Below the pieces are notes generated by a model. It searched no databases. It was given only the letters and a program-made list of their open reading frames with translations, and was not told where the DNA came from. A stretch of 53,180 nucleotides of DNA from a virus (taxonomy: Duplodnaviria > Caudoviricetes), in IMG/VR virus record IMGVR_UViG_3300012041_000025, positions 1 to 53,180 of that record. One strand, given 5' to 3'. Shown piece after piece: positions 1,384 to 18,002 of this stretch. Each line of letters starts with the position of its first letter. Position 1 is the first letter of the stretch. A program made the translations under genes and the position numbers.

Positions 1384-2592
1384 TTATTTAGATATTTGTT
1401 TCATCTTCACGACCTTTGCAAACGCCGGCGCATTATCAATGATCTTTTGTTTGTATTTTCCTTTCACCGCTTTCGCATAGATCTCCGTCATCTGTTTGCT
1501 TTTGTGTCCGTATAGCGTTCGCAATACATCCAGGTCGATATCCGCCATGATCTTATCATCAGCACCCTTATGTTTCAATGAATACATTTTGCAATCGATC
1601 TTCAGGCCTTTGATCACCAGGTCACGCCACCAGTTGGTTGGTGTGTTGGGATGATAAGCCACGGGACCCGGTTTGAATTTTTCATTGGAAAATAGATAGT
1701 GAGTACCTGGGTAATTCCATATCTGTCGTTGCAATAGTATCTGCATGATCGTGTCAGTGATCGGAACAATCCTGGCTTTGTTGGTCTTGGCGACTTCCGG
1801 CCGGATATGGATCTCGCGGGTAGTCAGGTTGAAGTCCTGGATCTGCAGGAGTAATGTTTCTTTGCGCCGGATCCCATCGTCATAAATGAACATCAGGTAT
1901 TCGAAGAAATCTGGAGCATTCAATAACAAGTGATCAGCGATCGTTTCCTTCTCAGCATCCGTCAGGCGTTTGTAACCCATGCTTTCTTCCATAGGTTCAT
2001 CCTTTATTCCTTTGGCCGGGTTGAACTTCATTACTTCCTTTTCATCCACCAGGACTGACAGCAATGCGCGGAAGATGGATAGGTATTTATTGCGTGCCTG
2101 GTTGGTCCATCCATTTTCTTCCCTGGCGGCATTTAATATTTCCCGGATATCTTTTCGCTCCAGGGAACTTACTTTGGTAAAGTAGTGCCCAGTTATCTTA
2201 GCAGCTGCTTTCATAAATCGGACACAACCGTTGTAATCATACATTGAATAGCGGGATAGGATCCGTTTCTTTTCCGCCACGGCAATATCCAAGGCATCGG
2301 CAAACAAAACGATCGATGGTGCCGGGTCAGCTTGCTTATTAAAGTTGGGGTACTTTTCCAGCAGGGGATTCCATTTGTTTTGCAGCGCATCCCACAATAC
2401 ATCGGCATTAGCTTCGGCCTGTAGCTTCCGTTTGGATTTGACCAGGCAGTTGATCCCATGCTTGTAGCGCATGTTGTGTTTTTTGCCGGTGGAATCGTAT
2501 AGCGCAAAAAAAACCTCCCAGATGTTTTTGGATACATCTGCGAGGCGAGCCACGGGTTTAGTTGCCCGAAAGCCAGAGAATTGATAAGCCAT
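1384..2592 (-). CDS. int: Tyrosine recombinase (phage integrase)
   Basis: 402 aa; motifs GIRRKE (R), AKTNK (K), YSLKH, YGH, TEIY (Y); adjacent to attP. Confidence 0.93.
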   Translation of the reverse strand: MAYQFSGFRATKPVARLADVSKNIWEVFFALYDSTGKKHNMRYKHGINCLVKSKRKLQAEANADVLWDALQNKWNPLLEKYPNFNKQADPAPSIVLFADALDIAVAEKKRILSRYSMYDYNGCVRFMKAAAKITGHYFTKVSSLERKDIREILNAAREENGWTNQARNKYLSIFRALLSVLVDEKEVMKFNPAKGIKDEPMEESMGYKRLTDAEKETIADHLLLNAPDFFEYLMFIYDDGIRRKETLLLQIQDFNLTTREIHIRPEVAKTNKARIVPITDTIMQILLQRQIWNYPGTHYLFSNEKFKPGPVAYHPNTPTNWWRDLVIKGLKIDCKMYSLKHKGADDKIMADIDLDVLRTLYGHKSKQMTEIYAKAVKGKYKQKIIDNAPAFAKVVKMKQISK

Positions 2593-4211: not shown

Positions 4212-4766
4212 TTATAAATTCCGATACAAAGCCCGGTAGGCCCACACCTTTTGTGAATAATCCCCACCATGCGTATACCGGTCAACATCATACCCTTTCT
4301 TCAGCGCTTTCAATACATTTCCCTGTCCGCAATTATACGCCGCGGTAATCGATCGATGCCCTGTGACCTCATCCAGCTTCTCTAACCCATACTGTGTTTG
4401 CAAATATTTTCTTTTCTCTTCCAATACCTGGATGGCTTTCAGGCAACACAACAAAGGATCCTTCCAGTCACCACTTCTTATGAACAAAGGATAACTCCCG
4501 ATATCAATCTGCCAATACCCATACCCATGATAAGAAAATTCATCTTCTCCCGGGCGTTTGCCATAATCACCTCTTGCATGATCATGCATCCTGGAGGGGA
4601 TCGCCACCTTATCTTCATGCTTTGAAATCACGGTCCACGTTTCGCGATAGGCCATGGCTGCCAGCCAATCTTCTGTATAAATGACACCAGTGTTTTTTGC
4701 CAATGCCTCCCTGATAACCGGACCCAGCGCTGTTCTATACCACAACATGATTTGCTTCTGTGTCAT
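4212..4766 (-). CDS. Endolysin, g-type lysozyme / GH23-like
   Basis: AMAYRET (catalytic E), GYGYWQID, AAYNCGQGNV, DYSQKV motifs. Confidence 0.85.
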   Translation of the reverse strand: MTQKQIMLWYRTALGPVIREALAKNTGVIYTEDWLAAMAYRETWTVISKHEDKVAIPSRMHDHARGDYGKRPGEDEFSYHGYGYWQIDIGSYPLFIRSGDWKDPLLCCLKAIQVLEEKRKYLQTQYGLEKLDEVTGHRSITAAYNCGQGNVLKALKKGYDVDRYTHGGDYSQKVWAYRALYRNL

Positions 4767-4930
4767 ACGCGTTTGATTTCATCAACCGTGGAAAATTTTT
4801 TAATATCCTCATTGATGGACTTCAACAGTTCCGTCAGCAATGGTTCCTCACATACTTTGATAGCCAATTCCAGTTTAAAAAGAATCATCTTGAGCAGTAA
4901 ATCTTTTCTGATGAAATAGCTGCTGTTCAT
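4763..4930 (-). CDS. Small lysis-cassette protein (55 aa, MNSSYF...)
   Basis: ATGA overlaps with both the spanin stop and the endolysin start. Confidence 0.55.
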   Translation of the reverse strand: MNSSYFIRKDLLLKMILFKLELAIKVCEEPLLTELLKSINEDIKKFSTVDEIKRV

Positions 4931-5511
4931 TTGATAAGCTTTATAAATGTTACCGTGGCAAGGGATAAAAACCGCTGGAGGTATTTCAGTCTGTATTCTC
5001 CAATGGAGCCGATTAAAATACACAGTAAAAACAACCACCAGGGAGGGGCCTTTTTTTTCACCTCCTTTGTATGAACGGATTCTGTTTTGGAAACATTCGC
5101 CCTCGCCTTTTCCAGTTCCACCACCAGGCTGTCCCTGCTATAAAGCGCTTCAATCAACTCGGTGTTTTTTTCGTACAGTGATTGGTTTAACGCCCGGACA
5201 TTTCCTTCGATTGATTTTAGTTTGCCATTGTCGAAGATGATCTTTGTTGACGGCTTTACGCTGGTCGGGCTATCCGGGCAGGGCGTATCATTAAAAACAA
5301 CGCCTGTACTTTCCCACTGCTCGATTTGCCTTTCATAATGCTCAATGGTTTCCTGCAAGGTTTTATGCAAGGCTTCATTCTGCATGATCGCCGCACTGTC
5401 GTAGATCGTTTCCATTTTCACCACCTCTTTCGTTGTCCGGCACCCGAACAATGACAGCAGCATCCACATAACCGGAATAAAGAAAGTGGTCGTTATTTTT
5501 TTCATGATCAA
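4927..5511 (-). CDS. Unimolecular spanin-like lipoprotein
   Basis: Lipobox LFG-C, coiled periplasmic region, C-terminal TM helix WWLFLLCILIGSIG. Confidence 0.75.
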   Translation of the reverse strand: MIMKKITTTFFIPVMWMLLSLFGCRTTKEVVKMETIYDSAAIMQNEALHKTLQETIEHYERQIEQWESTGVVFNDTPCPDSPTSVKPSTKIIFDNGKLKSIEGNVRALNQSLYEKNTELIEALYSRDSLVVELEKARANVSKTESVHTKEVKKKAPPWWLFLLCILIGSIGEYRLKYLQRFLSLATVTFIKLIK

Positions 5512-5537
5512 TATTTTGCTAATTCACCAGCGTTCCA

Positions 5538-5927
5538 TTAATTTAATTTCGAACCCGAATCGGTTCCTTTCATGGCATCGAGCTCATTTGTTTTTTGGTC
5601 GACAATACTCCTGATCTGCTTTTTTGCCTTACTCAATCCGAGCTGGATAATATAGGATCCGATTGCGCCCATCGTCACAAAAGACACCCGCGCAAAATCT
5701 GAGATGCCGTGATACTGGGCCGCCACTTCATGAAAAATAAGGTACCAGATACCCACGGACAGGAACGATAGCAGAATACTTGGAAAATCCTTGTACACAT
5801 AATCCCGGTACCATTTGAAATTGATGTTGGCTTTTCGTGCATCCACTAATAGCCCATTCAATTTCAAAAGTGAATGGAACAGTACGCCGGCAACGCCGCA
5901 TACAATAAAGGAAAAATCTGTTGTCAT
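5538..5927 (-). CDS. Putative holin (3 TM)
   Basis: Three hydrophobic segments, charged C-terminus, lysis-cassette position. Confidence 0.65.
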   Translation of the reverse strand: MTTDFSFIVCGVAGVLFHSLLKLNGLLVDARKANINFKWYRDYVYKDFPSILLSFLSVGIWYLIFHEVAAQYHGISDFARVSFVTMGAIGSYIIQLGLSKAKKQIRSIVDQKTNELDAMKGTDSGSKLN

Positions 5928-5945
5928 AGTTTTAGGTTTATGTAG

Positions 5946-6188
5946 TTAATCTTTTCTCATTTTGAAAATCGCTTCGATGATGCCTTCCTGGTTGGATAGC
6001 TTTTCATTCATATCCTTCTGATTCGTTTCCAGGGTTTCGATCCGTTTGATTATTTTTTCGTTGGCAGATGCGCCAAGACCTTCAATATGCCGTTCTTTTT
6101 CGTACCGGAAATAATCCTTGATCGCTTTACTGGCGGCTACCAGTGCGGCGGTGGATAAGAATAAGGATGCTATTAATTCTCCGCTCAT
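5946..6188 (-). CDS. Membrane-anchored coiled-coil protein (holin- or antiholin-like)
   Basis: N-terminal hydrophobic helix plus heptads; overlaps the REC stop. Confidence 0.55.
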   Translation of the reverse strand: MSGELIASLFLSTAALVAASKAIKDYFRYEKERHIEGLGASANEKIIKRIETLETNQKDMNEKLSNQEGIIEAIFKMRKD

Positions 6189-6625
6189 TTTATAACATGT
6201 TTTGATTGCTGATATTCGATGAATGGCGCTAACAACTCAATGGCTCGTTTTACGTAGTTCACGCATTTCTCCAGGTCATTTTGCTCATTTTTCTTGATCC
6301 ATTTGTAGATGCCGATATTAATAGCCCTGATCGGCACATCGTCATCTTCAATGGATGACCGGATAATTATTTTACAATAAGGATTTTTCTCCAACAGCTT
6401 TTCGGCGATATCCAATCCATTGCCCGGCTTAATCAGGTAATCCAACACGGCTACATGAACGTCCCGGTGATAGTGATTCCAAAACTCTGCTTCGTTGGTG
6501 AACAACATAAAGTTTTCAATGCCCGAATTTTTGAATACTCTATCTATCACGTTGAGCTCAATCTTGCTATCGTCCAGGATAAACGTGACGATATTCACAT
6601 CGCTGGTATTTTTCATGAACTTCAT
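6185..6625 (-). CDS. Stand-alone response regulator receiver (CheY-like) domain
   Basis: FILDD acidic pocket, VAVLD phospho-Asp, PGNGLD, IIRSS, WIKK. Confidence 0.88.
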   Translation of the reverse strand: MKFMKNTSDVNIVTFILDDSKIELNVIDRVFKNSGIENFMLFTNEAEFWNHYHRDVHVAVLDYLIKPGNGLDIAEKLLEKNPYCKIIIRSSIEDDDVPIRAINIGIYKWIKKNEQNDLEKCVNYVKRAIELLAPFIEYQQSKHVIK

Positions 6626-6676: not shown

Positions 6677-8251
6677 TTAGTTGTATTTTCTGCTCCATAT
6701 CCAGCGCCTTCTGCTGCCAGGTGGCGGTGGTGGCGGTGTTCCTGTTTCCACCGTGATGGATGACAACAAATAAGCGCCGTCAGCGGTTCTTCCCGCTATC
6801 GCTAATGGCAATGGCAACCGGTAATTATTAGGATCGGTAATTTTTACATACAGATCATAAGCACCCTCATTAATGGCCGGCATTGAATAAGCATCAACAA
6901 CCGTACTGTCCCCGGGAAGAAAAAGTTTGGGAGCGAAGTAGCTCACCGTATCCCAAACCGTAACGCCTGCACCTGTCCGTAGAGAATATTCCACCGTCCA
7001 ATTTTCGTAAGTAGGTGCTATGCCGACATTCTCCCAATCCAGATTAATAGTGAGCCCTGCTGCGACTACGGCGGAGCCTCCTGTCAATTCAAACCTGTAA
7101 CCGGCTTTCTTAAAGGCCGCTCTTGCCAGGTCAGCATCTTCTGTGCTCATGACAGTGCCCCAATTCCCGTTACCAAAGGAAGTGGCATGGTAAGTAGTAA
7201 TCTGATTCATCAGGTCACCATAGTAGGGCAAGGGAGGGCCAACGTAAGCAGGAGGCTCACCGGTGACCGGTCCATATTTATATGAATTCACGACGATCGT
7301 TCCGAAAGGATCTGAGCCGAGATAAGTCTCAGTATTGCCAGCTAAAAGACCATCTAAATACAAATCCCTGGCACCCCACTGATCACGCCGCCAACCAAAC
7401 CTTCCCCAAGCGTTAGAGCCGGTGAGTAATTCATAAGCCACTGAAGGATATACCTGGAAAAGATTAATACCTGAGTTTCTTCCATGAAATCCTGCTATCA
7501 TTGCAGACAACGGCCAATCAGGTAACTCATCCCTGTGAATGTCGATTATCTCTAAAAGAGTCGCTTCGGTGGGTTGTCTTCCGGTTGGGTGGCTATCCCA
7601 TGTTGCGTAGCCTCCACTGTGCCATTCATTATAATTCCCGTAACCTCTTATATCTATAGATAAAATAACATCTTCAAAATCTATCACCTCACCATCATGC
7701 GGACCAGCTTCAGCTTCATAGCTGGTTGTTTTTATATGAGCGTATAAAGCAGCGTATAGCGCTCTCAGTCTTGTAAGGTAATTCGTCGAGTTATAATTCG
7801 GTATCCAATCGCCACCGCTTAACCAATCCCTGTTATTCACACTTTCCGCTTGCATTAAATTGTGCAGGTACAAAGGATACACCGACCGGGCGCCGTCATA
7901 AAAGACTTCATTGTAGCCGGTGAACACCGTCATGATACCGAAGGAAAATTTCTGCCCGTTGTCAATGGCTTCCTGCACTAATCCGTCGAAGTACGTCCAG
8001 GTATAAGAACCGAGAGTAGGTCCTTCCAGTTTGTTCCATACAAACCGATAGTACAAGTCCTGCGAAGGAAGGTGGTATTCAGCATGTGGATTTGACACTC
8101 CTTCCGTTCCGTTGTGCCACTGCTCAGCACCCCTCCCAGGAGAAATAATATCAGGATCACCAAACGGTATTTGCGTAAAGGAAAAATTATAGGTCTGCGC
8201 CGTTGCGGTGAAGTAGAATGGTAGTAGTAATATGAAGATCAGTAATCTCAC
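6677..8251 (-). CDS. Secreted glycoside hydrolase-like protein (TIM-barrel plus DUF4832-like C-terminus)
   Basis: Signal peptide ATA|Q. YRFVWNKLE..GSYTW motif. C-terminal GYRFEL..WENVGIAPTY..LFLPG..LPLAIAGR. Confidence 0.7.
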   Translation of the reverse strand: MRLLIFILLLPFYFTATAQTYNFSFTQIPFGDPDIISPGRGAEQWHNGTEGVSNPHAEYHLPSQDLYYRFVWNKLEGPTLGSYTWTYFDGLVQEAIDNGQKFSFGIMTVFTGYNEVFYDGARSVYPLYLHNLMQAESVNNRDWLSGGDWIPNYNSTNYLTRLRALYAALYAHIKTTSYEAEAGPHDGEVIDFEDVILSIDIRGYGNYNEWHSGGYATWDSHPTGRQPTEATLLEIIDIHRDELPDWPLSAMIAGFHGRNSGINLFQVYPSVAYELLTGSNAWGRFGWRRDQWGARDLYLDGLLAGNTETYLGSDPFGTIVVNSYKYGPVTGEPPAYVGPPLPYYGDLMNQITTYHATSFGNGNWGTVMSTEDADLARAAFKKAGYRFELTGGSAVVAAGLTINLDWENVGIAPTYENWTVEYSLRTGAGVTVWDTVSYFAPKLFLPGDSTVVDAYSMPAINEGAYDLYVKITDPNNYRLPLPLAIAGRTADGAYLLSSITVETGTPPPPPPGSRRRWIWSRKYN

Positions 8252-8517
8252 TTTTGTTTTCGTTTTTGTTCTGCCTCAGCAAGAATATCCTGTAATACTT
8301 TCAGGATGGCATCATACCTTGGCTTTTCAGCGATAGTAAATTGCGCCTTGGCGGTTCCGTCTATCCGTTGCAAATAACCAAGCAGCTCACGTTTAGAAAT
8401 AATCTTCATGTCCAGGCTGTCAATCGTTGTGGGGGTTTTTATTTTGTCAGATTTTTTAACCTGTGCATTGCCCGCCACTGAAATAAGAATGGCTATTATA
8501 ATGATCGTTCCTTTCAT
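8248..8517 (-). CDS. Small secreted helical protein (possible fibre chaperone)
   Basis: Signal peptide GNA|Q; follows the fibre gene. Confidence 0.6.
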   Translation of the reverse strand: MKGTIIIIAILISVAGNAQVKKSDKIKTPTTIDSLDMKIISKRELLGYLQRIDGTAKAQFTIAEKPRYDAILKVLQDILAEAEQKRKQK

Positions 8518-8529
8518 ATTGCTTCTTTT

Positions 8530-11205
8530 TTAATTGACGGTCCTGCTTACTTCTCTCCACCGTTGAGTGCCCCCAATCTCACTTAGTAAAAGGGTAATAA
8601 CATCATCTGCTGTTGCAGAAAAATTAGCATTGCCGGCCAGCTCCATTCCTATGTTGGTGCCGCTATTAGCAGTGCCGTCTGTCAGCGTAGCCGTCGAAGT
8701 AAATATCAATGTTACCTGCGATCCTTGCTGCCAAATAAGATTTGAGATCAACGTGATTGCGCTTGTTCCTGTTATTTCAAATACGTCGCCATCGCCACCT
8801 AATGTTATTGCGCCTGCAGCCGAAGCGACGTCTGCACCTTGCTTTCCTCCCAGGACATTTCGCACATTTGCTTTAGATGCCGCAGTATCCGCATTATTAT
8901 TAAATCTTATTAAATCTTTCTGAACGTTCATGAACGTTTCTTCAACAGCGTTGTCCATACCCATTAAATCCACCTGTGATGTGCGGGTAGCATGGTCGAC
9001 CGTTGAAAATTTTGAAACGAACCTGTTTGAAATAAGGCCTTCTGCTCCACCAGTGCCGGCGGTTTCAAGAAAAAAGCCCAGGTCGGCGGCAATGCCATCC
9101 GTTGGCGTCCCAGTTGAGTAGCGGGCAAAATTCATAATTCTGCCTGGACCAGTTGTGGATGATAACGACGTGTTTGCAAACGAAGCGACTGCTCCCTCGC
9201 TACTGGCAGTTCTGGCGAAAAAGTTTGACGTGCCACTATAATTTGTCGTAAGACCAAGCGTAGGTGCGCTTGAAGTATTTAACGCCAAGCCTCCTGTTGC
9301 GGAATTAAAGGAGCCGCTATTTATATAAAAGCCAGTTAAAGAAAGTGGATTTGATCCAAGCGCAATCGTTTCGCTACCCGTCAAGGTACTTCCCGCATCC
9401 AAGACTTGTTGGAATGTTGGTGTGCTCACGCTTGCACTCCATATTAGTTTGCCATCATTATTGACTGTAACATTTCCTGAACCAAAGCCAGATAAAGCCC
9501 CTATATATGTGTCACCGGTAATATCTGCCCGCCCATCCGATACTCCAATGATGGCATTTCCTTCCGCAGAGTATAAGGAAGTAGACAGTGCATCCGCAAC
9601 TATTCTTGTAGTAGTGCCAGGTGACTTTACAGTGAATTCAGATAAATCTATAAATGATAATGAATTATTGTCGCCATCCAAAGTTCTATTGGACGTAAGG
9701 TTTGAATTGCCTGTATAAAGGGTAGTGCCGCCACCGCCACTTGCATTGATCGTTATACTTTCACCATCTACGCCAAATGTTACATTCGTGCCGGCTATCA
9801 ATGATTTTATTTTTGATGTAAACGGATCGACATACACTAATAACGTATCGCCTCCCGTTCCATTCTCAACTGATCTTAACGACGAAGAATCAAACCTTCT
9901 GAAACTCAAGGCCGATAATAAACCAGGATACGTAGCATCGGCGTATTGTTGATAGAAGATATTACCACTAACCCCAAAACCGAAAGCAGTTTTCGCCACG
10001 CCATCGATCGCTCCCTGTGTGTGCCAGGCCGTGAAACTTCTTAAAGCTCCCGTTCCATCAATGTACTGTGACGTGCTGCCAGCTCCTGTCACCGTGTGCG
10101 TCCCATTATTGGTAACGGTAGCCGGTGACGTTTGAAATGCCGACGGCATGGTCAGCGTATAGCTAAACTCACTGGTACCACCGCCGCCTGTTGGCACAAA
10201 GCCAGATATCAAATCAATATCATCCAAATACGCACCAGGATGAATAGCTGCACCAGCACTATTCGTATACCTTATCCGTACCCTGTCAATATTATAATTG
10301 GAAAAAACAAAGTCCGAAGTCGGTACATCGATCGCCTGGTAGACCAGCGAATTCCTGTTCAGGTTAATCGGTCGCTCATTCGATACCTGCAGGCTGCCAT
10401 TGAAAAAAGTAACCCGTACAAAAGATGTTATTGGCAGTATCGCTTTGAGTTGAATAGAAATGGAGATGGCCTGCCAGCTGAGCATATTCAGCGATCCCAA
10501 TGGCCTTGTCAAATAAATCAAATCCCCCTGGTTGATATTGGTCCAATTAATGGACTTACTACCGATCCATACATTGGAAGTATTGTCAGCATCAACGGTG
10601 GCGCCGCTTTGCGTGACGGTCCATTCTATGTTCTCATTATAGATTACTTCCTGCCCCAGGGCTGGAGTGGTGGACCCTGCCGGAATATCAATCACCGTCA
10701 GCTTAATTTGGTCACCGTCCAACTGTGGTTCTGCCGCTGATGGTGCCGCCACACCTTGCATTACATGCACCGCCCCGTCTGTCGCCAAATAAATGACATC
10801 TTTTCGCGGATTATCGGGATCACTGGCCGAAAGCGTGATCGAAGCAGAATCGCTGTTATAAATAAGATTAGCGATGCGGTAAACGGCTTCCTGTACATAG
10901 AAATGAAAGCCATACCCTTTATAGGATACCGATCCTTTATCCAGTACCTTATCGACCAGGCTTGAGCCCGTACCCGTACCGGATACTGGCTGCCAATACC
11001 CTAATTTTTGATACAGTACAAAATTGACAATGGCAATGGATGAATCAGGAGCCGACGCCAGCGTATCCTTCGGAATGCCTAATGACTTACCCACTTTGAG
11101 GTGGTTGGCAAAATCGTAGTTGCTGTAATTAATATTATATTTCGGGACCTGTGCCGATGCCAGGAATGATACCAACACTCCCAGGACAACAAATATTTTT
11201 TTCAT
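8530..11205 (-). CDS. Tail-fibre-like protein with Sec signal peptide
   Basis: MKKIFVVLGVLVSFLASA|Q. G/S/T-rich. PTFQQVLDAG motif. Fibre-type C-terminus ending WREVSR. Confidence 0.65.
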   Translation of the reverse strand: MKKIFVVLGVLVSFLASAQVPKYNINYSNYDFANHLKVGKSLGIPKDTLASAPDSSIAIVNFVLYQKLGYWQPVSGTGTGSSLVDKVLDKGSVSYKGYGFHFYVQEAVYRIANLIYNSDSASITLSASDPDNPRKDVIYLATDGAVHVMQGVAAPSAAEPQLDGDQIKLTVIDIPAGSTTPALGQEVIYNENIEWTVTQSGATVDADNTSNVWIGSKSINWTNINQGDLIYLTRPLGSLNMLSWQAISISIQLKAILPITSFVRVTFFNGSLQVSNERPINLNRNSLVYQAIDVPTSDFVFSNYNIDRVRIRYTNSAGAAIHPGAYLDDIDLISGFVPTGGGGTSEFSYTLTMPSAFQTSPATVTNNGTHTVTGAGSTSQYIDGTGALRSFTAWHTQGAIDGVAKTAFGFGVSGNIFYQQYADATYPGLLSALSFRRFDSSSLRSVENGTGGDTLLVYVDPFTSKIKSLIAGTNVTFGVDGESITINASGGGGTTLYTGNSNLTSNRTLDGDNNSLSFIDLSEFTVKSPGTTTRIVADALSTSLYSAEGNAIIGVSDGRADITGDTYIGALSGFGSGNVTVNNDGKLIWSASVSTPTFQQVLDAGSTLTGSETIALGSNPLSLTGFYINSGSFNSATGGLALNTSSAPTLGLTTNYSGTSNFFARTASSEGAVASFANTSLSSTTGPGRIMNFARYSTGTPTDGIAADLGFFLETAGTGGAEGLISNRFVSKFSTVDHATRTSQVDLMGMDNAVEETFMNVQKDLIRFNNNADTAASKANVRNVLGGKQGADVASAAGAITLGGDGDVFEITGTSAITLISNLIWQQGSQVTLIFTSTATLTDGTANSGTNIGMELAGNANFSATADDVITLLLSEIGGTQRWREVSRTVN

Positions 11206-11215
11206 AGAACAGTTA

Positions 11216-12559
11216 TTATTTTTTCATGACCCAGTAGACCCCGATATTATCCATCCTTGTTTCTGCGCCGCCAGCTGCCACGGTCAGGTGTCCACTTTGC
11301 GGTGTCGGCCCATTATCATTATTTAGGTAAAAAGTATTTTGCTGGCTACCGCCGTCAGAGTCGTTCGTATAATGCCCCAAGTCGTGCTGGTGGGCTGCAA
11401 ACTCATGGCGCTGATAGCCGCCGGGTTTATTGAGGTGCCGCTCCGTGTCGCTACCGGATTCAGAGACCAGCCCACGAAGGGATTGACCCATCAGGTCAGG
11501 CAGGCGGAAAGTGGTGCTGCCATCACCGGGCGTGAAACAACCGCGATAAGGAAAAGCCACGGTACGTCCAGCCACTGTAACGGATGCAGTAGCCCAGGTG
11601 GCTTCACTCACCAGGGAGAAACCAAGGTTGGCTACTTTCTCCCAGATACGTGGATAATCAGCACGGTTCACCAATTGCCCTTTACAGAGCACTTCATCAA
11701 AACCTACTTCATAACTGGCGACGGGTTGGCAAAGACCACGGTAGTGTTTGTAAAAATCATTGATGATATAAAGGCCGTCATCATCGCGGAAAAGCCAGCA
11801 GACTTCTCCTGGATGCATGTGGATCGTGTTCCTCGATACATTATTGAAATAAATGTATTGCCCGCCGGTGGTCGTGATGGCTGTCGGCTTGGTATTGTTG
11901 ATGCTGGTTTCAATTGGGATCAGCGCATTCACCGGTATATCATCCACATTGGGGATGGTAATGGTGATGGCTGTGGCATCGCTCCTGACCTGGATGATCT
12001 TATTCATATCCAGCACCGGATCCAGGGTAGTGTTGGTGGTGACTAATTTTTTCCCACCAATAAAGGATCCTGCGACGGTAGATGGACCGGAGGTGCCGGA
12101 ACCGATCAGGGCAAATATGCTCAGCTTGAAACGTTCATTTTCATTTAGCACATCGCCAGCCTGGAGTAATTTAAAACCCCCGGCATCCAGGATCTCGTAC
12201 TCAGCAATATCCACATTGCTGTTATCATCCAGTAACGCGATCAGGGGAAAACCACCTCTTTCCAGGGTAAAATCTTTACCAGCTAAGGAAGGAATATAAG
12301 CGGTGTCGGTGTCGGCGGCGGCATTGGGCACCACATAGATCATCTCGCCGCCATAAGATACCGGTGCATGGGAGCCGCTGCCACCACCGGTGTTGAAAAA
12401 AGTGTTGAGGAGGGATAGCGGAACCTTCTTTGTCAGGTTTTCACTCGCTATATAAATAGGTACCTGATCTGCCAGCTCGAGCGGCAGATCCACAGTCAAC
12501 GGTGACAATTCCGGAATCCTGGCGGTCTCTATGGACATGCCGGCAATGAGAGTACCCAT
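11216..12559 (-). CDS. Tail fibre protein with tail-collar domain
   Basis: CKGQLVNRADYP..GDGSTTFRLPDLMG..ETRMDNIG motifs. Confidence 0.85.
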   Translation of the reverse strand: MGTLIAGMSIETARIPELSPLTVDLPLELADQVPIYIASENLTKKVPLSLLNTFFNTGGGSGSHAPVSYGGEMIYVVPNAAADTDTAYIPSLAGKDFTLERGGFPLIALLDDNSNVDIAEYEILDAGGFKLLQAGDVLNENERFKLSIFALIGSGTSGPSTVAGSFIGGKKLVTTNTTLDPVLDMNKIIQVRSDATAITITIPNVDDIPVNALIPIETSINNTKPTAITTTGGQYIYFNNVSRNTIHMHPGEVCWLFRDDDGLYIINDFYKHYRGLCQPVASYEVGFDEVLCKGQLVNRADYPRIWEKVANLGFSLVSEATWATASVTVAGRTVAFPYRGCFTPGDGSTTFRLPDLMGQSLRGLVSESGSDTERHLNKPGGYQRHEFAAHQHDLGHYTNDSDGGSQQNTFYLNNDNGPTPQSGHLTVAAGGAETRMDNIGVYWVMKK

Positions 12560-12631: not shown

Positions 12632-14185
12632 TCAAATCTTGCGATAGATCTTACCGGTGGCATCTTCCATCAGCACTTCGGAAAAGCCGGTGTAGGTATT
12701 GGTCGTAGGCATATTCTGAAACACCAGGGTACCCACCACATTATTATTCAGGATGCTGTTATTGACCAGTTTGTTATCGATATCCCGCACATCGCGGTCG
12801 GTAGAGCTCTGGGCATTGATGATCCGCTGTACCGTGCCGGCAGTTACGGTGTCGGAGATCTCCACCTGCAGCTGGAATTCATTGACGATATTTCGGATGA
12901 CACTGATCACCCGGATCTTCCGTTGCAGCTCCAGCTCCTGGTCAAGGATCCACACCAGGTCGCCGATCTTCAAGAGCTTACTATAGCGGCGAACGAATAC
13001 GGGATCGAGCACAATATTATATGCCAGCTGCGGCTCACTGAGCTGGTTCAGCAGCGTGTTGGCCCGGACGGCTAAGTCTGCCTCAGCCGCATCAATATAA
13101 CTTTGCGGCAAATAAATATCGACCAGGACATATTCATCACCGATGGCTGGTCGGATCAGGGCGCTGGGCAGATCCAGCACCTTCTCCTCGGCATTTTTCT
13201 GTATCCGGAATATTTTGGTGCCATTATTGAACGACTCGACTTCAAACTCGTAGCCGGCTAACTGGCCGGTATTAAAGGCCACTTTCGCTACGAGCCCGGG
13301 TAACAGGTAATCGTTAACGTTGAAATCAATATCAGCATCGGTAAAAACAAATGGATCGCCCCCGTTCACGGCGGTCACTATGCCGGTGCGGTGCGGAAAA
13401 ATATCTTCGAATATTTCCGTGTGCTCGATCACACCATAGGCCGCTGTATTATGTTCCAGGAAATAAACAGCAGGCAGCTTTAAACGACGGCTGGTGACCA
13501 GGTACGCCTCCGGCAGGTTTTTCTCGCTTCCAAACGCATAGAGCCGGGTAACAATGCTGCTGTTGTTTAGGGTTTGCCGGGTGATCTCGTACAGGCCTTT
13601 GTTGCGGCCATGTTTGAAGGTATAGCCGGTATCATTGCTGCGTTTGGTCAAATGGATGGTCTTGCCTTCGATCCAGAATTCCGTTTCAAATTCTTCTGCC
13701 AGGCGGCTTAATGCGTTGTAACAATTTTCCCGTGAAAAGGTGATGTTCTTGTATTCGGATAAGATCACTTGTCCTTTGATCCATCCACTGCTGACGCGGT
13801 TGATATTGGCAAGGACCAGGTTTATAAAATCATCCGCATTGCCCATCAGTGAAAAGTCAGATTCACGAAGGGTATTATCCGCTCCGAGGAAAAGAAATTG
13901 CGCTTTGGCAAGGTCATATCCCCGTGCTTCCATCACCAGGGTATAGCGCCACAGGAAACGGCTAACTTTTGTCACCAGCGGTAGTCGGTTGATGATGTAT
14001 GTTTCCCCAAAAACAGAACAGTAGTCGTTTATTTTAAACTGGATGTAATGGTTTTCCTCAAAGGCGATGTTCAGCAGGTTATCGCCCATGATCCGCTTCA
14101 CCTGGGTGCTGTTGTTGTCCGGCTTAATGGTGACAAAAGCAGTTGGCGCCGATGCTACATCCCGCAATATATCTATTGTATTCAT
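12632..14185 (-). CDS. Baseplate hub / Tal-like tail protein
   Basis: IVTRLYAFGSEKNL, YGVIE, IGDLV motifs; follows Dit. Confidence 0.8.
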   Translation of the reverse strand: MNTIDILRDVASAPTAFVTIKPDNNSTQVKRIMGDNLLNIAFEENHYIQFKINDYCSVFGETYIINRLPLVTKVSRFLWRYTLVMEARGYDLAKAQFLFLGADNTLRESDFSLMGNADDFINLVLANINRVSSGWIKGQVILSEYKNITFSRENCYNALSRLAEEFETEFWIEGKTIHLTKRSNDTGYTFKHGRNKGLYEITRQTLNNSSIVTRLYAFGSEKNLPEAYLVTSRRLKLPAVYFLEHNTAAYGVIEHTEIFEDIFPHRTGIVTAVNGGDPFVFTDADIDFNVNDYLLPGLVAKVAFNTGQLAGYEFEVESFNNGTKIFRIQKNAEEKVLDLPSALIRPAIGDEYVLVDIYLPQSYIDAAEADLAVRANTLLNQLSEPQLAYNIVLDPVFVRRYSKLLKIGDLVWILDQELELQRKIRVISVIRNIVNEFQLQVEISDTVTAGTVQRIINAQSSTDRDVRDIDNKLVNNSILNNNVVGTLVFQNMPTTNTYTGFSEVLMEDATGKIYRKI

Positions 14186-14706: not shown

Positions 14707-16509
14707 TTACATAAATATGGCCTGTACAAATTCCCGGGTGGAGGGGATATAAATTATATCAATGACCTGACCGGAAAGATTAAACGAACCTGGATCTACT
14801 ACAAATATTTGCGCTTTTAGAATGGCAACATCTTGCCCGTTGATAACAAAAGAGCCGGCATTCGCACTTAATATTTTTTCAGCTAGTAAGTTGACATTCT
14901 GCCCCGTTAATGAAAATGATCCTGGCTGAGCTGACACCGTTCTACCAAATCTCAATGCAACATCACTGCCCGTTAGATTGTAAACTCCGCTGTCGCCTGA
15001 TATCTTCAACCCTCTCAGCAATGATGCAGCCTGGCCATTGACATTTAAACTGCCGGCACTGGCCGCCATCACCCGGGTGTAGCGAAACGCGACATCCTGC
15101 CCGCTTACGATGAATGATCCAGCTGCGGCCGAAAGGATTGCCTCACTATCAAACGCTACAGTGCCACCTGTTAAAATGTAACTACCGGCCACTGGTGACA
15201 GCAATCGACTCAATGAGAAATTTGCGGCTTGACCTGCCAGGCTGAATGAACCAGCATTGGAAAGTATTTTGCGCTGTGCTCTCAGCGAAGCCGCCTGCCC
15301 CGTTATCAAATAGCTGGCCGCATCAGTAGTTATTTTCCTTTGGACTGTAAGCGTAGCAGTTGATCCATTAATGGAATAACTACCAGCATCAAGCATTAAC
15401 CGTTCACCCCTGGTAAGCGTTACATTCTGGCCGTTGATCAAATACGAACCGGCATCACCAGCTATCCTGCGATGGACTCTGAATGTTACATCCTGACCTG
15501 TCACCGCAAAGGATCCTGCATCGGCAATTACCTTCCTGGCATATACGAAGTTTACATCCTGCCCGGTAAGTAAATAGCTGCCAGCTTCTGCATTGAGTCG
15601 AATGACACTAATAAGATTTACATCCTGCCCGTTCAATAAGTATGAACCGGCATTAGTAAGAATCTTGCGCTGTACCGTTAACCCTACTGAGCTTCCACTA
15701 AAAGCAAATGAACCGGAATCGGCCCTCACCTTGCGATGCAGCAATACCGTTTGCCCGGTTACTACAAATGAACCTGAGTCAGTTAATATCTTTCTTTGGA
15801 TGGATAAAGTCGCGGCTTGCCCGGTCAATGCATAGCTTCCTGCATCAATGGATAATTTTACACCCTTCCTAAAGGTTATATCCTGACCGGTAAGATTGAA
15901 TGCACCGGAATCAACTATTAGCCGTTGTGCCGCTATTAAGTTGACATCCTGGCCGGTCAATACATAAGCGCCTGAATCAGCCCTTACGCTTCGCTGGAAC
16001 TTCACCGATTGGCCACTCAAAGCATAGCTGCCTGAGTCAGCTGCAATCTTTACCCCTCTCTTGAATGTTACCGCTTGCCCACTGAGTGAATATGATCCTG
16101 CATCACTGGTGATCTTTCTGTCTGCCCTCAACGTTGCAGCCTGGCCACTAAGCGCAAAAGATCCTGAATCACTGATAATCTTCCTGGTGATCGGTAGGTT
16201 TACAGTCTGCCCGGTAAATGAGAAGCTACCTGAATCTGCCGCTATCTTTCTGGCTGCTTTTAAGCTAACAGTCTGACCAGTTACATTGAACGTACCTGCA
16301 TCTGCTGTCAGCGTAAGATTTCTGATCAGTGATTGCGGATTAAAAAAGAACAACGAACCGGCAAGGATCGCTGTCTTTAATGTTTTCCTGAGAACCGGAT
16401 TATCTCGCGGCTGATACCACTTATCAATAGTAATAGTCTCAGGCGCTGCCGGCGTAGATACCGGCGTGATCGCTTCGGTGAAATCCTGATATATTACATA
16501 CTTTCTCAT
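14707..16509 (-). CDS. Tandem-repeat virion protein (24 x 20-22 aa), probable filament or fibre
   Basis: Repeat consensus D[SA]GS[FY]xLxGQxVxL, counted 24 times. Confidence 0.75.
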   Translation of the reverse strand: MRKYVIYQDFTEAITPVSTPAAPETITIDKWYQPRDNPVLRKTLKTAILAGSLFFFNPQSLIRNLTLTADAGTFNVTGQTVSLKAARKIAADSGSFSFTGQTVNLPITRKIISDSGSFALSGQAATLRADRKITSDAGSYSLSGQAVTFKRGVKIAADSGSYALSGQSVKFQRSVRADSGAYVLTGQDVNLIAAQRLIVDSGAFNLTGQDITFRKGVKLSIDAGSYALTGQAATLSIQRKILTDSGSFVVTGQTVLLHRKVRADSGSFAFSGSSVGLTVQRKILTNAGSYLLNGQDVNLISVIRLNAEAGSYLLTGQDVNFVYARKVIADAGSFAVTGQDVTFRVHRRIAGDAGSYLINGQNVTLTRGERLMLDAGSYSINGSTATLTVQRKITTDAASYLITGQAASLRAQRKILSNAGSFSLAGQAANFSLSRLLSPVAGSYILTGGTVAFDSEAILSAAAGSFIVSGQDVAFRYTRVMAASAGSLNVNGQAASLLRGLKISGDSGVYNLTGSDVALRFGRTVSAQPGSFSLTGQNVNLLAEKILSANAGSFVINGQDVAILKAQIFVVDPGSFNLSGQVIDIIYIPSTREFVQAIFM

Positions 16510-18002
16510 TGTACTCCACGGCTTAAACTATCTTGAAAAGACTCGACTATCGAATTTAAACCAGCTGCTTCTGTTGCAGTTAATGAACTTCCAATAGTTA
16601 CAAAAGCAACTTCTCTATCTGAAAACACCTGAGCTCCATTGTTTACAGAAGATATTTTAAGACTATTCGTACTTAATGTCCCGCTTGCATCTGAGCTACT
16701 TTGCAAAACTGCACCATTTCTATAAACTGCTCTTGCATTTGATGCCGTTCTGCTTAATATGAAAAATCCAAGTGAAGTTGTATTTGCCACTGTGCCATAG
16801 CTTACATCATTATCATTTATATTATAAACTAATTCATTAACAGTAGTTCTTATTACAAGTCGAACCATTGATAATTCTTCACCAATATCAATATTATTCT
16901 GCGCTATGTTTGTTCTTGAATAAAAAGAAACGTGGGCACTATTAAGCGATAACACTGCGCTTGGGGTTAAAAATGTATCTGCAGAAGTATCTACCCCGTT
17001 GGGGAGTGCACCAGTTGATGAATGGGTCCATCCTCCGTAAAAGACTAATCGAAACGCTGCATCTGAGTCAACCGGGTTTTTTAAATTCCATTTATGTTTG
17101 GCTGCCGTACCTCCAATGAAAGGATATATCGCATTACACTTCGTCCAAAGACCTGCCCCTTTCAAAGCTCCAACTAATTGATTAATGGAGTTCTTATGCA
17201 AATCGCTACTTAACCCTGTCGTATCTATGAAAGTCTGTGCATCGGTGTCAAAGGGAGTAATCCCTAAATTTCTGAGGCCTGCACCTATCACTAATCTTTT
17301 TGAACGATATGGTTGTTCAATGTTTCGTGGTATAAATTCTCCAGGGGGAAATTCCCAAAATGTTATGAGCCTGGTTGCAGCACCATCACTTGCTGACATA
17401 TTCTGACTAACATTTGCTAATGTAGCAATAGATGTTTGAATGTTATACGCATAACTACTGCTTGAATCCTGCCCGGCCAAATTTCTGTATTGTGCCGATA
17501 AACTTGTTTTAACCCATCCACTGCCTGATAGAGATCCAAATGTGTTATCATCGGAGGTAAACCAACCAGCGATTGAAACTGTAGAGGCATGGGTCGTGGT
17601 TCTACCGGTAATTGTAATGGTAAAAGGACTAGCTGGAGCGGCAATGTCTGCATATGTTGCTGCTTCATACCCAAAAATGTACCCCGGGCCAGTTGGGGCA
17701 AAAACTAACATAATCAATGATAAATTAACTGTTCCGGTATAATCAAAAACCGGGTCGGTTGTCCAAGTACCATTAAAAACACACCAGTATGTTTCACCCC
17801 ATCCATTTGACAGCTTCGTCCATGTTTGTCCAGCAGCGTTACTTACCGAATGACTGGATGTACCGGCTCTGTCAACCGAAAACACGACACACAACTGACC
17901 TGCAACCATGCTGGCTACTGGCGTAATGGACAATGTTGGATTACCATCAGCAGTACCATTATCAGCCGGGTTACTTGTTGCACCAAATAACGTAATAGCC
18001 AT
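16506..18002 (-). CDS. Two-domain virion protein, possible lectin-like receptor-binding protein
   Basis: Beta-rich N-terminal domain. C-terminal DTDAQTFI..GLWTK..IYPFIGGTAAKHKWNLKNP domain typical of phage structural proteins. Confidence 0.55.
   Translation of the reverse strand: MAITLFGATSNPADNGTADGNPTLSITPVASMVAGQLCVVFSVDRAGTSSHSVSNAAGQTWTKLSNGWGETYWCVFNGTWTTDPVFDYTGTVNLSLIMLVFAPTGPGYIFGYEAATYADIAAPASPFTITITGRTTTHASTVSIAGWFTSDDNTFGSLSGSGWVKTSLSAQYRNLAGQDSSSSYAYNIQTSIATLANVSQNMSASDGAATRLITFWEFPPGEFIPRNIEQPYRSKRLVIGAGLRNLGITPFDTDAQTFIDTTGLSSDLHKNSINQLVGALKGAGLWTKCNAIYPFIGGTAAKHKWNLKNPVDSDAAFRLVFYGGWTHSSTGALPNGVDTSADTFLTPSAVLSLNSAHVSFYSRTNIAQNNIDIGEELSMVRLVIRTTVNELVYNINDNDVSYGTVANTTSLGFFILSRTASNARAVYRNGAVLQSSSDASGTLSTNSLKISSVNNGAQVFSDREVAFVTIGSSLTATEAAGLNSIVESFQDSLSRGVQ

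Follow-up and report, generated by a model that had tools for sequence, protein, structure and literature searches.

The window analyzed here, i.e., the whole stretch of 53,180 bases, is the IMG/VR virus record IMGVR_UViG_3300012041_000025 (Duplodnaviria; Caudoviricetes), the completeness of which is rated 95 % and which carries nearly every gene on the minus strand. Subject of this study are three consecutive genes of its late operon, coding for a fibre-like protein of 891 amino acids (aa), a protein of 89 aa and a DUF4832 protein of 524 aa, each starting with a predicted leader for export by the Sec system. The three genes are tightly packed, with 10 nt between a collar-type tail fibre gene and the 891-aa gene, 12 nt between the 891-aa and 89-aa genes, and a 4-nt overlap of the 89-aa and 524-aa genes.

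8530-11205, minus strand: gene of the 891-aa fibre-like protein, ATG start
11152-11205, minus strand: signal peptide of the 891-aa protein, residues 1-18
8248-8517, minus strand: gene of the 89-aa protein, ATG start
8464-8517, minus strand: signal peptide of the 89-aa protein, cut predicted between A18 and Q19
6677-8251, minus strand: gene of the 524-aa DUF4832 protein, GTG start
8198-8251, minus strand: signal peptide of the 524-aa protein

Export leaders and their conservation

The sequence preceding the predicted cleavage site is MKKIFVVLGVLVSFLASA in the 891-aa protein (followed by QV), MKGTIIIIAILISVAGNA in the 89-aa protein (followed by QV) and MRLLIFILLLPFYFTATA in the 524-aa protein (followed by QT). 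Each leader combines one or two basic residues with a hydrophobic core of 10-13 residues, small residues at positions -3 and -1 (pre-Gln triplets A-S-A, G-N-A and A-T-A, respectively) and Gln at +1, and the predicted cut lies between A18 and Q19 in all three. The Sec signal peptides with an Ala-Gln junction that a first-pass annotation had noticed on these reading frames are thereby recovered for the whole trio, including the n-, h- and c-region features. Leaders were called by a crude rule of the authors' own making. This rule was passed by 7 of the 62 minus-strand open reading frames (ORFs) of at least 80 aa, namely by the trio, a 194-aa lipoprotein (4927-5511) and three ORFs that lie within longer genes or overlap with them; the occurrence of a leader on three adjacent genes is therefore no chance feature of the genome.

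A start site placed too far upstream, which could have mimicked the leaders, finds no support: the 524-aa gene contains no ATG, GTG or TTG between its GTG start and the conserved mature N-terminus FSFTQIPF, the alignment of the 891-aa relatives begins at Met1, and no alternative start removes the leader. In the structural model of the 891-aa protein, the leader forms a helix (residues 2-15) followed by a disordered stretch (17-58).

Conservation in homologues, which the first-pass annotation had left to a survey of relatives, is evident from two sets. Among the relatives of the 891-aa protein found by word-based search, 51 of 59 carry a leader and Gln+1 according to the same rule; of the remainder, P0033 has a leader missed by the rule and seven have none. 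Q19 reaches at least 90 % conservation in a 42-row alignment (A4), being one of only three nearly invariant positions. A HMMER scan with the last 103 residues of the 891-aa protein (C-domain, see below) yielded 1779 representatives at E ≤ 1e-3, of which 155 reached E ≤ 1e-30. The leader count was taken on the top 149 C-domain representatives (query excluded): 111 have a leader plus Gln+1, 7 another hydrophobic start and 31 none, with 22 of these 31 being shorter than 400 aa and many looking like fragments. The physico-chemical pattern and Gln+1 are retained by leaders of differing sequence, and the leader is probably cut, since selection for Gln+1 would otherwise make no sense. Distant C-domain ORFs on viral and genome contigs possess a leader at the first start in 4 of 36 cases, plus one (L010) at an internal Met. 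Since such distant carriers, including the tail fibre of Alteromonas phage XX1924, mostly do without it, the leader appears to be a lineage-specific feature added to an otherwise ordinary family of phage fibres.

Virions of tailed phages normally assemble in the cytoplasm, and this textbook view, together with the 7 of 59 relatives and the many distant C-domain proteins devoid of a leader, would favour leaders that do not work, i.e., mis-called starts, uncleaved anchors or folding aids of proteins assembled in the cytoplasm. Such leaders are considered very improbable, as the mature N-terminus of the 524-aa protein has no alternative start ahead of it, the n-, h- and c-region features and Gln+1 persist in otherwise diverging leaders, and the modelled leader is a helix followed by a disordered linker.

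Beyond the leader, no match to Por_Secre_tail or to the type A and B sorting models of the type IX secretion system (T9SS; presumably TIGR04183 and TIGR04131) was obtained in the trio (Pfam at E ≤ 0.01, NCBIfam at E ≤ 0.05). T9SS sorting was ruled out on account of the missing sorting domain and of the occurrence of the C-domain in an Alteromonas phage as well; Alteromonas is not known to have a T9SS. A lipobox is likewise absent from the three proteins. Since neither a T9SS sorting domain nor a lipobox remains after cleavage, the products would be soluble periplasmic proteins until lysis. Disulfide formation was ruled out as a reason for export by the complete lack of Cys in the trio (0 of 1504 residues), which says nothing for or against a particular location.

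On the basis of these features, export of the trio by Sec and removal of the leaders by signal peptidase I are regarded as very probable. Two reports (PMC5837995; PMC10653852) describe Gln+1 (Q-rule) as a property of signal peptidase I substrates of Bacteroidetes, the Gln being cyclised to pyroglutamate. By analogy with other exported proteins of Bacteroidota, the Gln exposed by cleavage in the trio is probably cyclised as well.

The 891-aa fibre-like protein

The 891-aa protein has no family match in Pfam, PHROG or NCBIfam, and sequence searches of solved structures with the 891-aa and 89-aa proteins gave matches at chance level only. A protein-atlas search gave only sub-threshold leads, pointing to viral fibre clusters (scores ≤ 0.81). 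Among isolate phages, only Alteromonas phage XX1924 was matched: the last 111 residues align with the C-terminus of its annotated tail fibre (33.6 % identity, E 1e-4). The conserved C-terminal domain is also found in leaderless fibre-like ORFs of viral contigs. Structural modelling distinguishes the following parts:

10186-10968, minus strand: folded N-module, residues ~80-340, the only part modelled confidently as a monomer (predicted local distance difference test, pLDDT, ~85-97)
8533-9180, minus strand: C-terminal region, residues 676-891, modelled as a homotrimer
8533-8841, minus strand: conserved C-domain, last 103 residues

Residues ~180-340 of the N-module are predicted to form a β-sandwich resembling carbohydrate-binding modules (CBM), with VIA-align matching them to a CBM8 domain (7t7z; Z 16.9, root-mean-square deviation 2.5, 145 aligned residues) and to the N-domain of chondroitinase ABC (Z 15.1). 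With the same program, the two-domain stretch of residues 101-346 matched (i) the turret of Haloferax tailed virus 1 (HFTV1; 8qpg_TC, Z 14.4), (ii) a baseplate protein of siphophage R4C (8gtc_M, Z 11.9), and (iii) surface glycan-binding proteins of Bacteroides (Z ~11).

In case of the C-terminal region (residues 676-891), the monomer reached a pLDDT of only ~40-55. The three-copy model scored 0.80 versus 0.00 for the best control, with at least 87 % of the contacts common to the runs and a pLDDT of at least 85 and a pLDDT this high in all runs. For calibration, 20 of 30 proteins with structures solved as pairs, but just 1 of 23 with single-chain structures, attained the mark; these figures apply only roughly to the present model, which used three copies and a custom alignment. 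This trimer prediction, also proposed with the first-pass annotation, supports but does not prove that the C-terminal region forms a homotrimer. Together with the match to the XX1924 tail fibre, it agrees with the earlier description of the 891-aa protein as tail-fibre-like.

The protein belongs to a mosaic family, sharing its N-module (residues 85-490) with one set of relatives and its last 103 residues with another, otherwise different set. These 103 residues are 60-88 % identical across proteins that differ otherwise. Domains of SASA, GDSL or pectate-lyase type, as known from tailspikes, are present in some relatives. A search of 301 genomes of the family to which the genome of locus L003 belongs detected the C-domain in only 2, which marks it as phage-borne. 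A genome search with alignment A2 gave a single weak match in Actinomycetota. In isolate phages, P0056 had no match and P0007 only short ones.

Some further observations concern the same family. The C-domain, at 70-88 % identity, is conserved far beyond the rest of its carrier proteins (P0182, P0183, P0014, P0303), and in some proteins it is repeated two to four times or placed internally. Such a distribution would be expected of a module for trimerisation or docking rather than of a receptor-binding tip, which tends to vary. On a small contig with portal and DNA-polymerase genes (L019), 12 proteins were scanned, and a tail-fibre family was matched by just one of them, the 594-aa protein with a leader, though weakly (phrog_9942, E 5.7e-5). 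In the genome bin of L003, the leader-fibre is apparently split into a 214-aa ORF with leader (8682-9326) and a 285-aa ORF with C-domain (9455-10312), which could be genuine or result from a frameshift or faulty assembly.

Potential O-glycosylation sites

General O-glycosylation in Bacteroidota targets D-(S/T)-(A/I/L/V/M/T) in exported proteins (PMC8550257; see also PMC12871550). Four such sequons are present in the 891-aa protein (D47-T-L among them), one in the 89-aa and two in the 524-aa protein, corresponding to 4.7 per 1000 residues in the trio versus 2.4 in the other genes of the window, a weak excess (7 versus ~3.7 expected). Within the first 60 mature residues, a sequon occurs in 46 of 53 leader-bearing fibre relatives, compared to 208 of 716 background windows taken from these proteins. 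At the level of N-terminal clusters, 19 of 26 have the sequon (shuffled expectation 0.19), these clusters maybe being remote homologues and hence not independent. D47-T48-L49 of the 891-aa protein falls into the stretch modelled as disordered, and a sequon near the mature N-terminus is also present in the 89-aa protein and in 4 of its 6 positional analogues. The motif could also be structural instead of related to glycosylation.

The 524-aa DUF4832 protein and the 89-aa protein

The 524-aa protein matches Pfam DUF4832 (PF16116) with E 2e-10 and 41.2 bits (cut-off 29.2). Its model (pLDDT 86; predicted template-modelling score, pTM, 0.84) shows two parts:

~7097-8140, minus strand: (β/α)8 TIM barrel of the 524-aa protein
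~6749-7093, minus strand: C-terminal β-sandwich of the 524-aa protein

Foldseek related the model to GH35 (glycoside hydrolase family 35) β-galactosidases and to β-amylases (E ~2e-8, with a template-modelling (TM) score of only ~0.35), and VIA-align to β-amylase 3voc (Z 19.2) as well as GH42, GH35 and GH5 enzymes (Z 13-15). In an alignment of 17 sequences (A3), E209-W210-H211 and T330-G331-E332-P333 are invariant, the residue preceding E209 being Gly or Asn, i.e., not always Asn; E209 and E332 are thus proposed as candidate catalytic residues. In glycosidases of clan GH-A, two catalytic Glu follow strands 4 and 7 of the barrel. The family match above cut-off and the modelled likeness to TIM-barrel glycosidases fit the glycosidase that the first-pass annotation had assumed in this set.

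Sequence search of solved structures and of isolate phages gave no match for the 524-aa protein, and the single sequence retrieved nothing from viral contigs, where relatives surfaced with alignment A3. Altogether 340 relatives were found, the closest being P0062 (77 % identity) and P0063 (73 %). Among the 119 listed of these 340, there are 60 with a type-I leader and Gln+1, 32 with a lipobox, 21 without leader and 6 with another hydrophobic start. Cellular relatives from Chitinophagaceae are 42-56 % identical over nearly the full length, and the DUF4832 family is present in 4 of 101 genomes searched of the same family, with up to six copies per genome.

In the non-phage chromosomal loci, the relatives that were scanned are large cargo proteins of the T9SS containing PKD repeats and a Por_Secre_tail domain. 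Two of the five non-phage loci adjoin polysaccharide-synthesis genes, namely L083 (Bac_transf and GFO_IDH_MocA) and L085 (UDP-GlcNAc 2-epimerase and Asn synthase). Because of these neighbours, a surface or extracellular polysaccharide may be the substrate of the 524-aa protein, and the loci hint at a DUF4832 family acting on the cell's own surface polysaccharide. The chromosomal T9SS cargo proteins (L083 4454-9709; L085 1-5505; L081 8755-12948) attain up to 1751 aa and 12 PKD repeats.

The 89-aa protein has no match in Pfam, PHROG or NCBIfam, and the word-based search returned only the protein itself. Small leader-bearing proteins (81-82 aa, 22-30 % identity) stand at the equivalent position in L068, L069 and L071. 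The designation as chaperone, put forward in the first-pass annotation, was dropped for want of a family and of relatives other than these weakly similar positional ones.

Phage, host and late-operon layout

The remaining features of the window that bear on the trio are:

915-987: tRNA-Ala, at one end of the window
1384-2592: tyrosine integrase (Pfam Phage_integrase, E 1.9e-15; PHROG integrase, E 2.6e-40)
4212-6188, minus strand: putative lysis block
4212-4766, minus strand: 184-aa SLT-like protein (Pfam SLT, E 0.0094, under cut-off)
4927-5511, minus strand: 194-aa lipoprotein with C-terminal hydrophobic stretch (NCBIfam spanin2, E 0.027, weak)
5538-5927, minus strand: 129-aa holin-like protein with three hydrophobic stretches
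5946-6188, minus strand: 80-aa membrane protein
6185-6625, minus strand: stand-alone response-regulator receiver (Pfam Response_reg, E 8.4e-11, 42.5 bits versus cut-off 30.2), between cassette and lysis block
11216-12559, minus strand: leaderless tail fibre of collar type (447 aa), separated by 10 nt from the 891-aa gene that follows
12632-14185, minus strand: Prophage_tail protein
14707-16509: gene of a 600-aa tail protein
16506-18002: 498-aa tail protein without leader
20097-24158, minus strand: 1353-aa ORF, putative tape measure by length and position

The tRNA-Ala and tyrosine integrase at one end of the window indicate a temperate phage. A direct repeat representing the attachment site was not found within the window, and the second prophage end probably lies outside the record. 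The host is probably a member of the Bacteroidota, class Chitinophagia (Chitinophagaceae), since those named organisms with the closest relatives of the 524-aa protein belong to Chitinophagaceae and loci with the C-terminal domain of the 891-aa protein include one in a Chitinophagaceae genome bin and another in Sediminibacterium.

The 447-aa collar-type fibre matches PHROG tail and tail-fibre families (E 1.7e-12 to 7e-8) and scores 23 bits with Pfam Collar (cut-off 24); it does not pass the leader rule. On the other side of the trio, homologues of the lysis block occupy the equivalent position in L057, L061, L062, L064 and L066, and homologues of the 194-aa protein (37-42 % identity) the equivalent place in L061, L064 and L066. 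The 184-aa protein is a putative endolysin by its sub-threshold SLT match and by sequence motifs; a search of solved structures gave no relative of it. The placement of the trio between collar fibre and lysis genes, as originally described, is confirmed in its coordinates, with family matches of the lysis genes being partly weak.

Three side observations pertain to these neighbours. The 194-aa protein combines a lipoprotein-type start (…LLSLFGC) with a C-terminal hydrophobic stretch (…PPWWLFLLCILIGSIG…), which is the layout of unimolecular spanins. The gene of the 600-aa tail protein contains a 26-nt repeat six times at 14891-16224, with spacings in multiples of 66 nt implying a protein repeat of 22 residues. 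Alteromonas phage XX1924 is likewise annotated with a "response regulator" (L077 2044-2457), the third gene past its tail fibre.

A temperate element with its integrase beside a tRNA-Ala may carry genes for lysogenic conversion or auxiliary metabolism, in which case the trio would be expressed from the prophage and serve a surface change (superinfection exclusion) or periplasmic sugar nutrition. The junction of tail-fibre and lysis genes is a classic site for such cargo (lambda lom/bor), and DUF4832 also is a cellular family. For Q-rule genes in prophages of Porphyromonas gingivalis, modification of the host outer membrane is proposed in PMC10367356. Cargo of this kind is nevertheless considered improbable: (i) gaps of 10 and 12 nt and the 4-nt overlap leave no room for an own promoter or terminator (Bacteroidota-type promoters were not scanned), (ii) the GC content of the trio (0.44-0.49) is similar to that of the neighbouring genes, (iii) the cassette is kept in diverged phages, even amid tail genes in L071, (iv) lytic phages of Cellulophaga show an equivalent arrangement, and (v) the C-domain is present in only 2 of the 301 host-family genomes.

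Recurrence of the cassette

The order leader-fibre, small leader-bearing protein, DUF4832 protein recurs in viral contigs L068, L069 and L071 with leaders on all three products, and in L063, L065, L066 and L061 with a DUF4832 protein that has no leader. The cassette stands downstream of a collar-type fibre in L063 and L065. In L061 and L066, it is succeeded by genes for a holin-like protein, a lipoprotein and an endolysin, and in L071 by further tail genes. A prophage in a host-family genome (L084) codes for a leader-fibre with 39 % identity to the N-module of the window protein, then for a GDSL esterase and a DUF4832 protein, both with leaders, and finally for an Amidase_2 endolysin and an S49 protease. 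The longest contigs of P0062 and P0063 (26,325 and 10,339) have the same lengths as those of the fibre relatives P0005 and P0004, which suggests that these DUF4832 and fibre proteins are encoded on the same contigs. In L063, a leader-bearing 580-aa protein has its C-terminal ~260 residues in common with the leaderless 498-aa tail protein of the window, indicating that modules move between leaderless and leader-bearing proteins.

Proposed function and association with virions

The trio may represent a Sec-exported module of the late operon that recognizes and degrades host sugars. With high confidence, the precursors would cross the inner membrane by Sec and be processed by signal peptidase I at the A18-Q19 junction. 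In the periplasm, as the models suggest, the 891-aa protein would fold into a fibre trimer that includes a CBM-like module for sugar binding and the 524-aa protein into a TIM-barrel glycosidase with a C-terminal β-sandwich, the 89-aa protein being a small soluble partner. Co-transcription with tail genes and the position before the lysis genes point, with moderate confidence, to a build-up of the proteins in the periplasm late in infection. Once holin, endolysin and spanin open the envelope, they would meet the particles built in the cytoplasm; the fibre would most probably dock on, or stay with, the released virions, and the glycosidase, bound to the virion or free, would cut surface or extracellular polysaccharide of the host. 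The late-operon packing and the conservation of leader and Gln+1 support the export part of this sequence of events. From the exported set of fibre, chaperone and glycosidase envisaged in the first-pass annotation, export, fibre and glycosidase are retained, whereas the chaperone is not. The whole chain, virion association included, is estimated to have an even chance of being correct.

Evidence on virion association comes from Cellulophaga phages, the virion status of their proteins being taken from the record annotation. In phage phi18:3 (NC_021794, Pachyviridae), gp085, gp086 and gp087 each have a leader and Gln+1, are encoded just upstream of small membrane proteins and an endolysin, and are labelled virion structural, structural and tail protein, respectively, "based on experimental MS/MS proteomics analysis" (MS/MS, tandem mass spectrometry); a leader is present in none of nine further MS/MS-annotated virion proteins checked (gp099, 104, 112-115, 120, 121 and 123). 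In phage phi10:1 (KC821618, Assiduviridae, a siphovirus), gp091-094 carry leaders as well as the MS/MS note, and the pectate lyase gp095 also has a leader. Five such genes are consecutive in phi46:3, annotated by similarity only. In phi18:3 and phi10:1, the run of leader-bearing genes directly precedes holin-like or lysis genes. By way of analogy, these MS/MS annotations provide the strongest argument at hand for proteins with leaders from the fibre region of Bacteroidota phages being carried along with virions.

Several points weigh against virion association or against the need for export. Isolate searches with the 891-aa and 524-aa proteins missed the Cellulophaga proteins, the analogy of which is thus confined to gene organisation, and co-purification with particles is a possibility for sugar-binding proteins. 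In a leader-bearing structural or pectate-lyase protein of the Cellulophaga phages, the N-terminal 118 residues, comprising leader and first domain, show 82-83 % identity between the siphoviruses phi10:1 and phi19:1 and the podoviruses phi18:3, phi19:3 and phi13:2 of the same host genus (phi10:1, L089 6001-6354; gp086 of phi18:3, L088 4545-4898), the rest of the protein being different. Such a shared N-terminus would be odd for a baseplate-specific anchor and fits a host-directed function equally well as a virion anchor. The DUF4832 ORF is leaderless in 13 of the 18 viral loci printed and leader-bearing in 5 (with five of the 13 representing one phage type and two another), and several leaderless ORFs begin exactly at the mature N-terminus; these variants imply that the enzyme works without export in some relatives. 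The leaderless collar fibre of the window could be its sole fibre, and cleavage and location of the trio are read from sequence. Finally, we know of no mechanism by which periplasmic fibres dock on cytoplasmic particles.

Alternatively, the proteins may be exported without ever entering the particle, acting as free late enzymes and lectins that bind and cut surface or extracellular polysaccharide of the host, first from the periplasm and, after lysis, in the medium. Such a receptor-destroying or release function, sparing the progeny retention in the matrix and loss on debris, would extend the lysis cassette. The block adjoins the lysis genes, cellular DUF4832 relatives are secreted (Por_Secre_tail or lipobox), and polysaccharide-synthesis genes are neighbours in the two chromosomal loci mentioned; moreover, leader-bearing GDSL/SGNH esterases accompany the cassette in relatives (L084), the window has its leaderless collar fibre, the leaderless DUF4832 variants would escape at lysis regardless, and virion assembly is, as said, cytoplasmic by the textbook. 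Free action is a serious, though less favoured, possibility. It is at odds with the MS/MS notes, according to which analogous proteins with leaders were present in the virions prepared from two cultured phages, with the fibre architecture kept by the 891-aa protein (a trimer C-domain common to leaderless fibres and a few conserved, adaptor-like types of N-terminal motif), and with the lack of a T9SS or lipoprotein signal, which would confine the proteins to the periplasm without reach to surface polymers before lysis.

Joining the virion and remodelling the cell surface, the two fates offered in the first-pass annotation, are inseparable by sequence, and the Cellulophaga MS/MS records favour the former by analogy. 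That the module, or at least its fibre, is on or with virions after maturation in the periplasm is accordingly given about the same weight as its contrary. Going further, one may tentatively speculate that tailed phages of Bacteroidota possess a second, extracytoplasmic assembly line, comprising Sec export of fibres and depolymerases, pyroglutamate formation, O-glycosylation by the general system of the host (for instance at the conserved D-T-L/T sequon in the disordered stretch past the leader) and docking at lysis, with the 89-aa protein as docking or holding factor and the window as its temperate, siphovirus-like version in Chitinophagaceae; this larger scheme is rather doubtful.

If host-recognition parts of tailed phages do pass through the periplasm, the rule of wholly cytoplasmic assembly would fail for a major bacterial phylum. 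Fibres might then bear host-made pyroglutamate and O-glycans affecting stability, host range and antigenicity, periplasmic expression would be required to obtain the receptor-binding proteins and depolymerases of these phages in active form, and pipelines that treat proteins with signal peptides as non-structural would miss such fibres.

Comparison with known systems

The cellular DUF4832 proteins of Chitinophagaceae share TIM barrel and β-sandwich with the 524-aa protein. They are lipoproteins or large T9SS cargo, contrasting the phage form, which has a type-I leader only and no surface-sorting domain. Phage tailspikes and tail fibres with receptor-modifying enzyme domains, and virion-borne or free depolymerases, are similarly modular, their sugar-binding or enzymatic modules being variable, and are likewise encoded where the tail genes end; unlike the trio, the classical examples lack a signal peptide and are assembled in the cytoplasm.

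According to PMC10769870, the mosaic adhesive trimer (MAT) fibres of Bdellovibrio bacteriovorus are tail-fibre-like, sugar-binding trimers with a signal peptide, a conserved N-terminal domain and variable tips; the MAT domain following the signal peptide is β-rich and comprises ~130 aa, and many of the proteins have a C-terminal S74 chaperone-protease. No Pfam match to Peptidase_S74 was obtained in the 891-aa protein. MATs show that export by Sec does not prevent phage-like fibre trimers from folding in Gram-negative bacteria. They are cellular proteins on the surface of the predator, in contrast to the phage-encoded protein of the window, and the two are likened here by their mode of working and not as members of one family.

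The phages of Cellulophaga baltica come closest in organisation, with runs of three to five genes for proteins with leader and Gln+1, some of them pectate-lyase-like, at the end of the structural genes. They are lytic, marine and infect a member of the Flavobacteriia, whereas the element in the window is temperate with a probable host among Chitinophagaceae; the leaders are unmentioned in the phage records. In case of the P. gingivalis prophages, the Q-rule genes have no function assigned in PMC10367356 and are read as envelope modifiers, contrasting the window, where the leader resides on a trimeric protein of tail-fibre type and on its partners within the tail operon.

The literature consulted, including PMC6199706, PMC5723332 and PMC3338817, gave no account of tail-fibre signal peptides as a route of virion assembly; the supplements of Holmfeldt et al. 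2013 might bear on this. Within this literature, the Q-rule genes of the P. gingivalis prophages are the only phage-borne precedent found. To these systems the window adds a temperate, siphovirus-like case with a probable host among Chitinophagaceae, a linked putative DUF4832 glycosidase in leader-bearing and leaderless forms, a very large and highly conserved family of putatively trimer-forming C-domains, and a conserved sequon following the leader.

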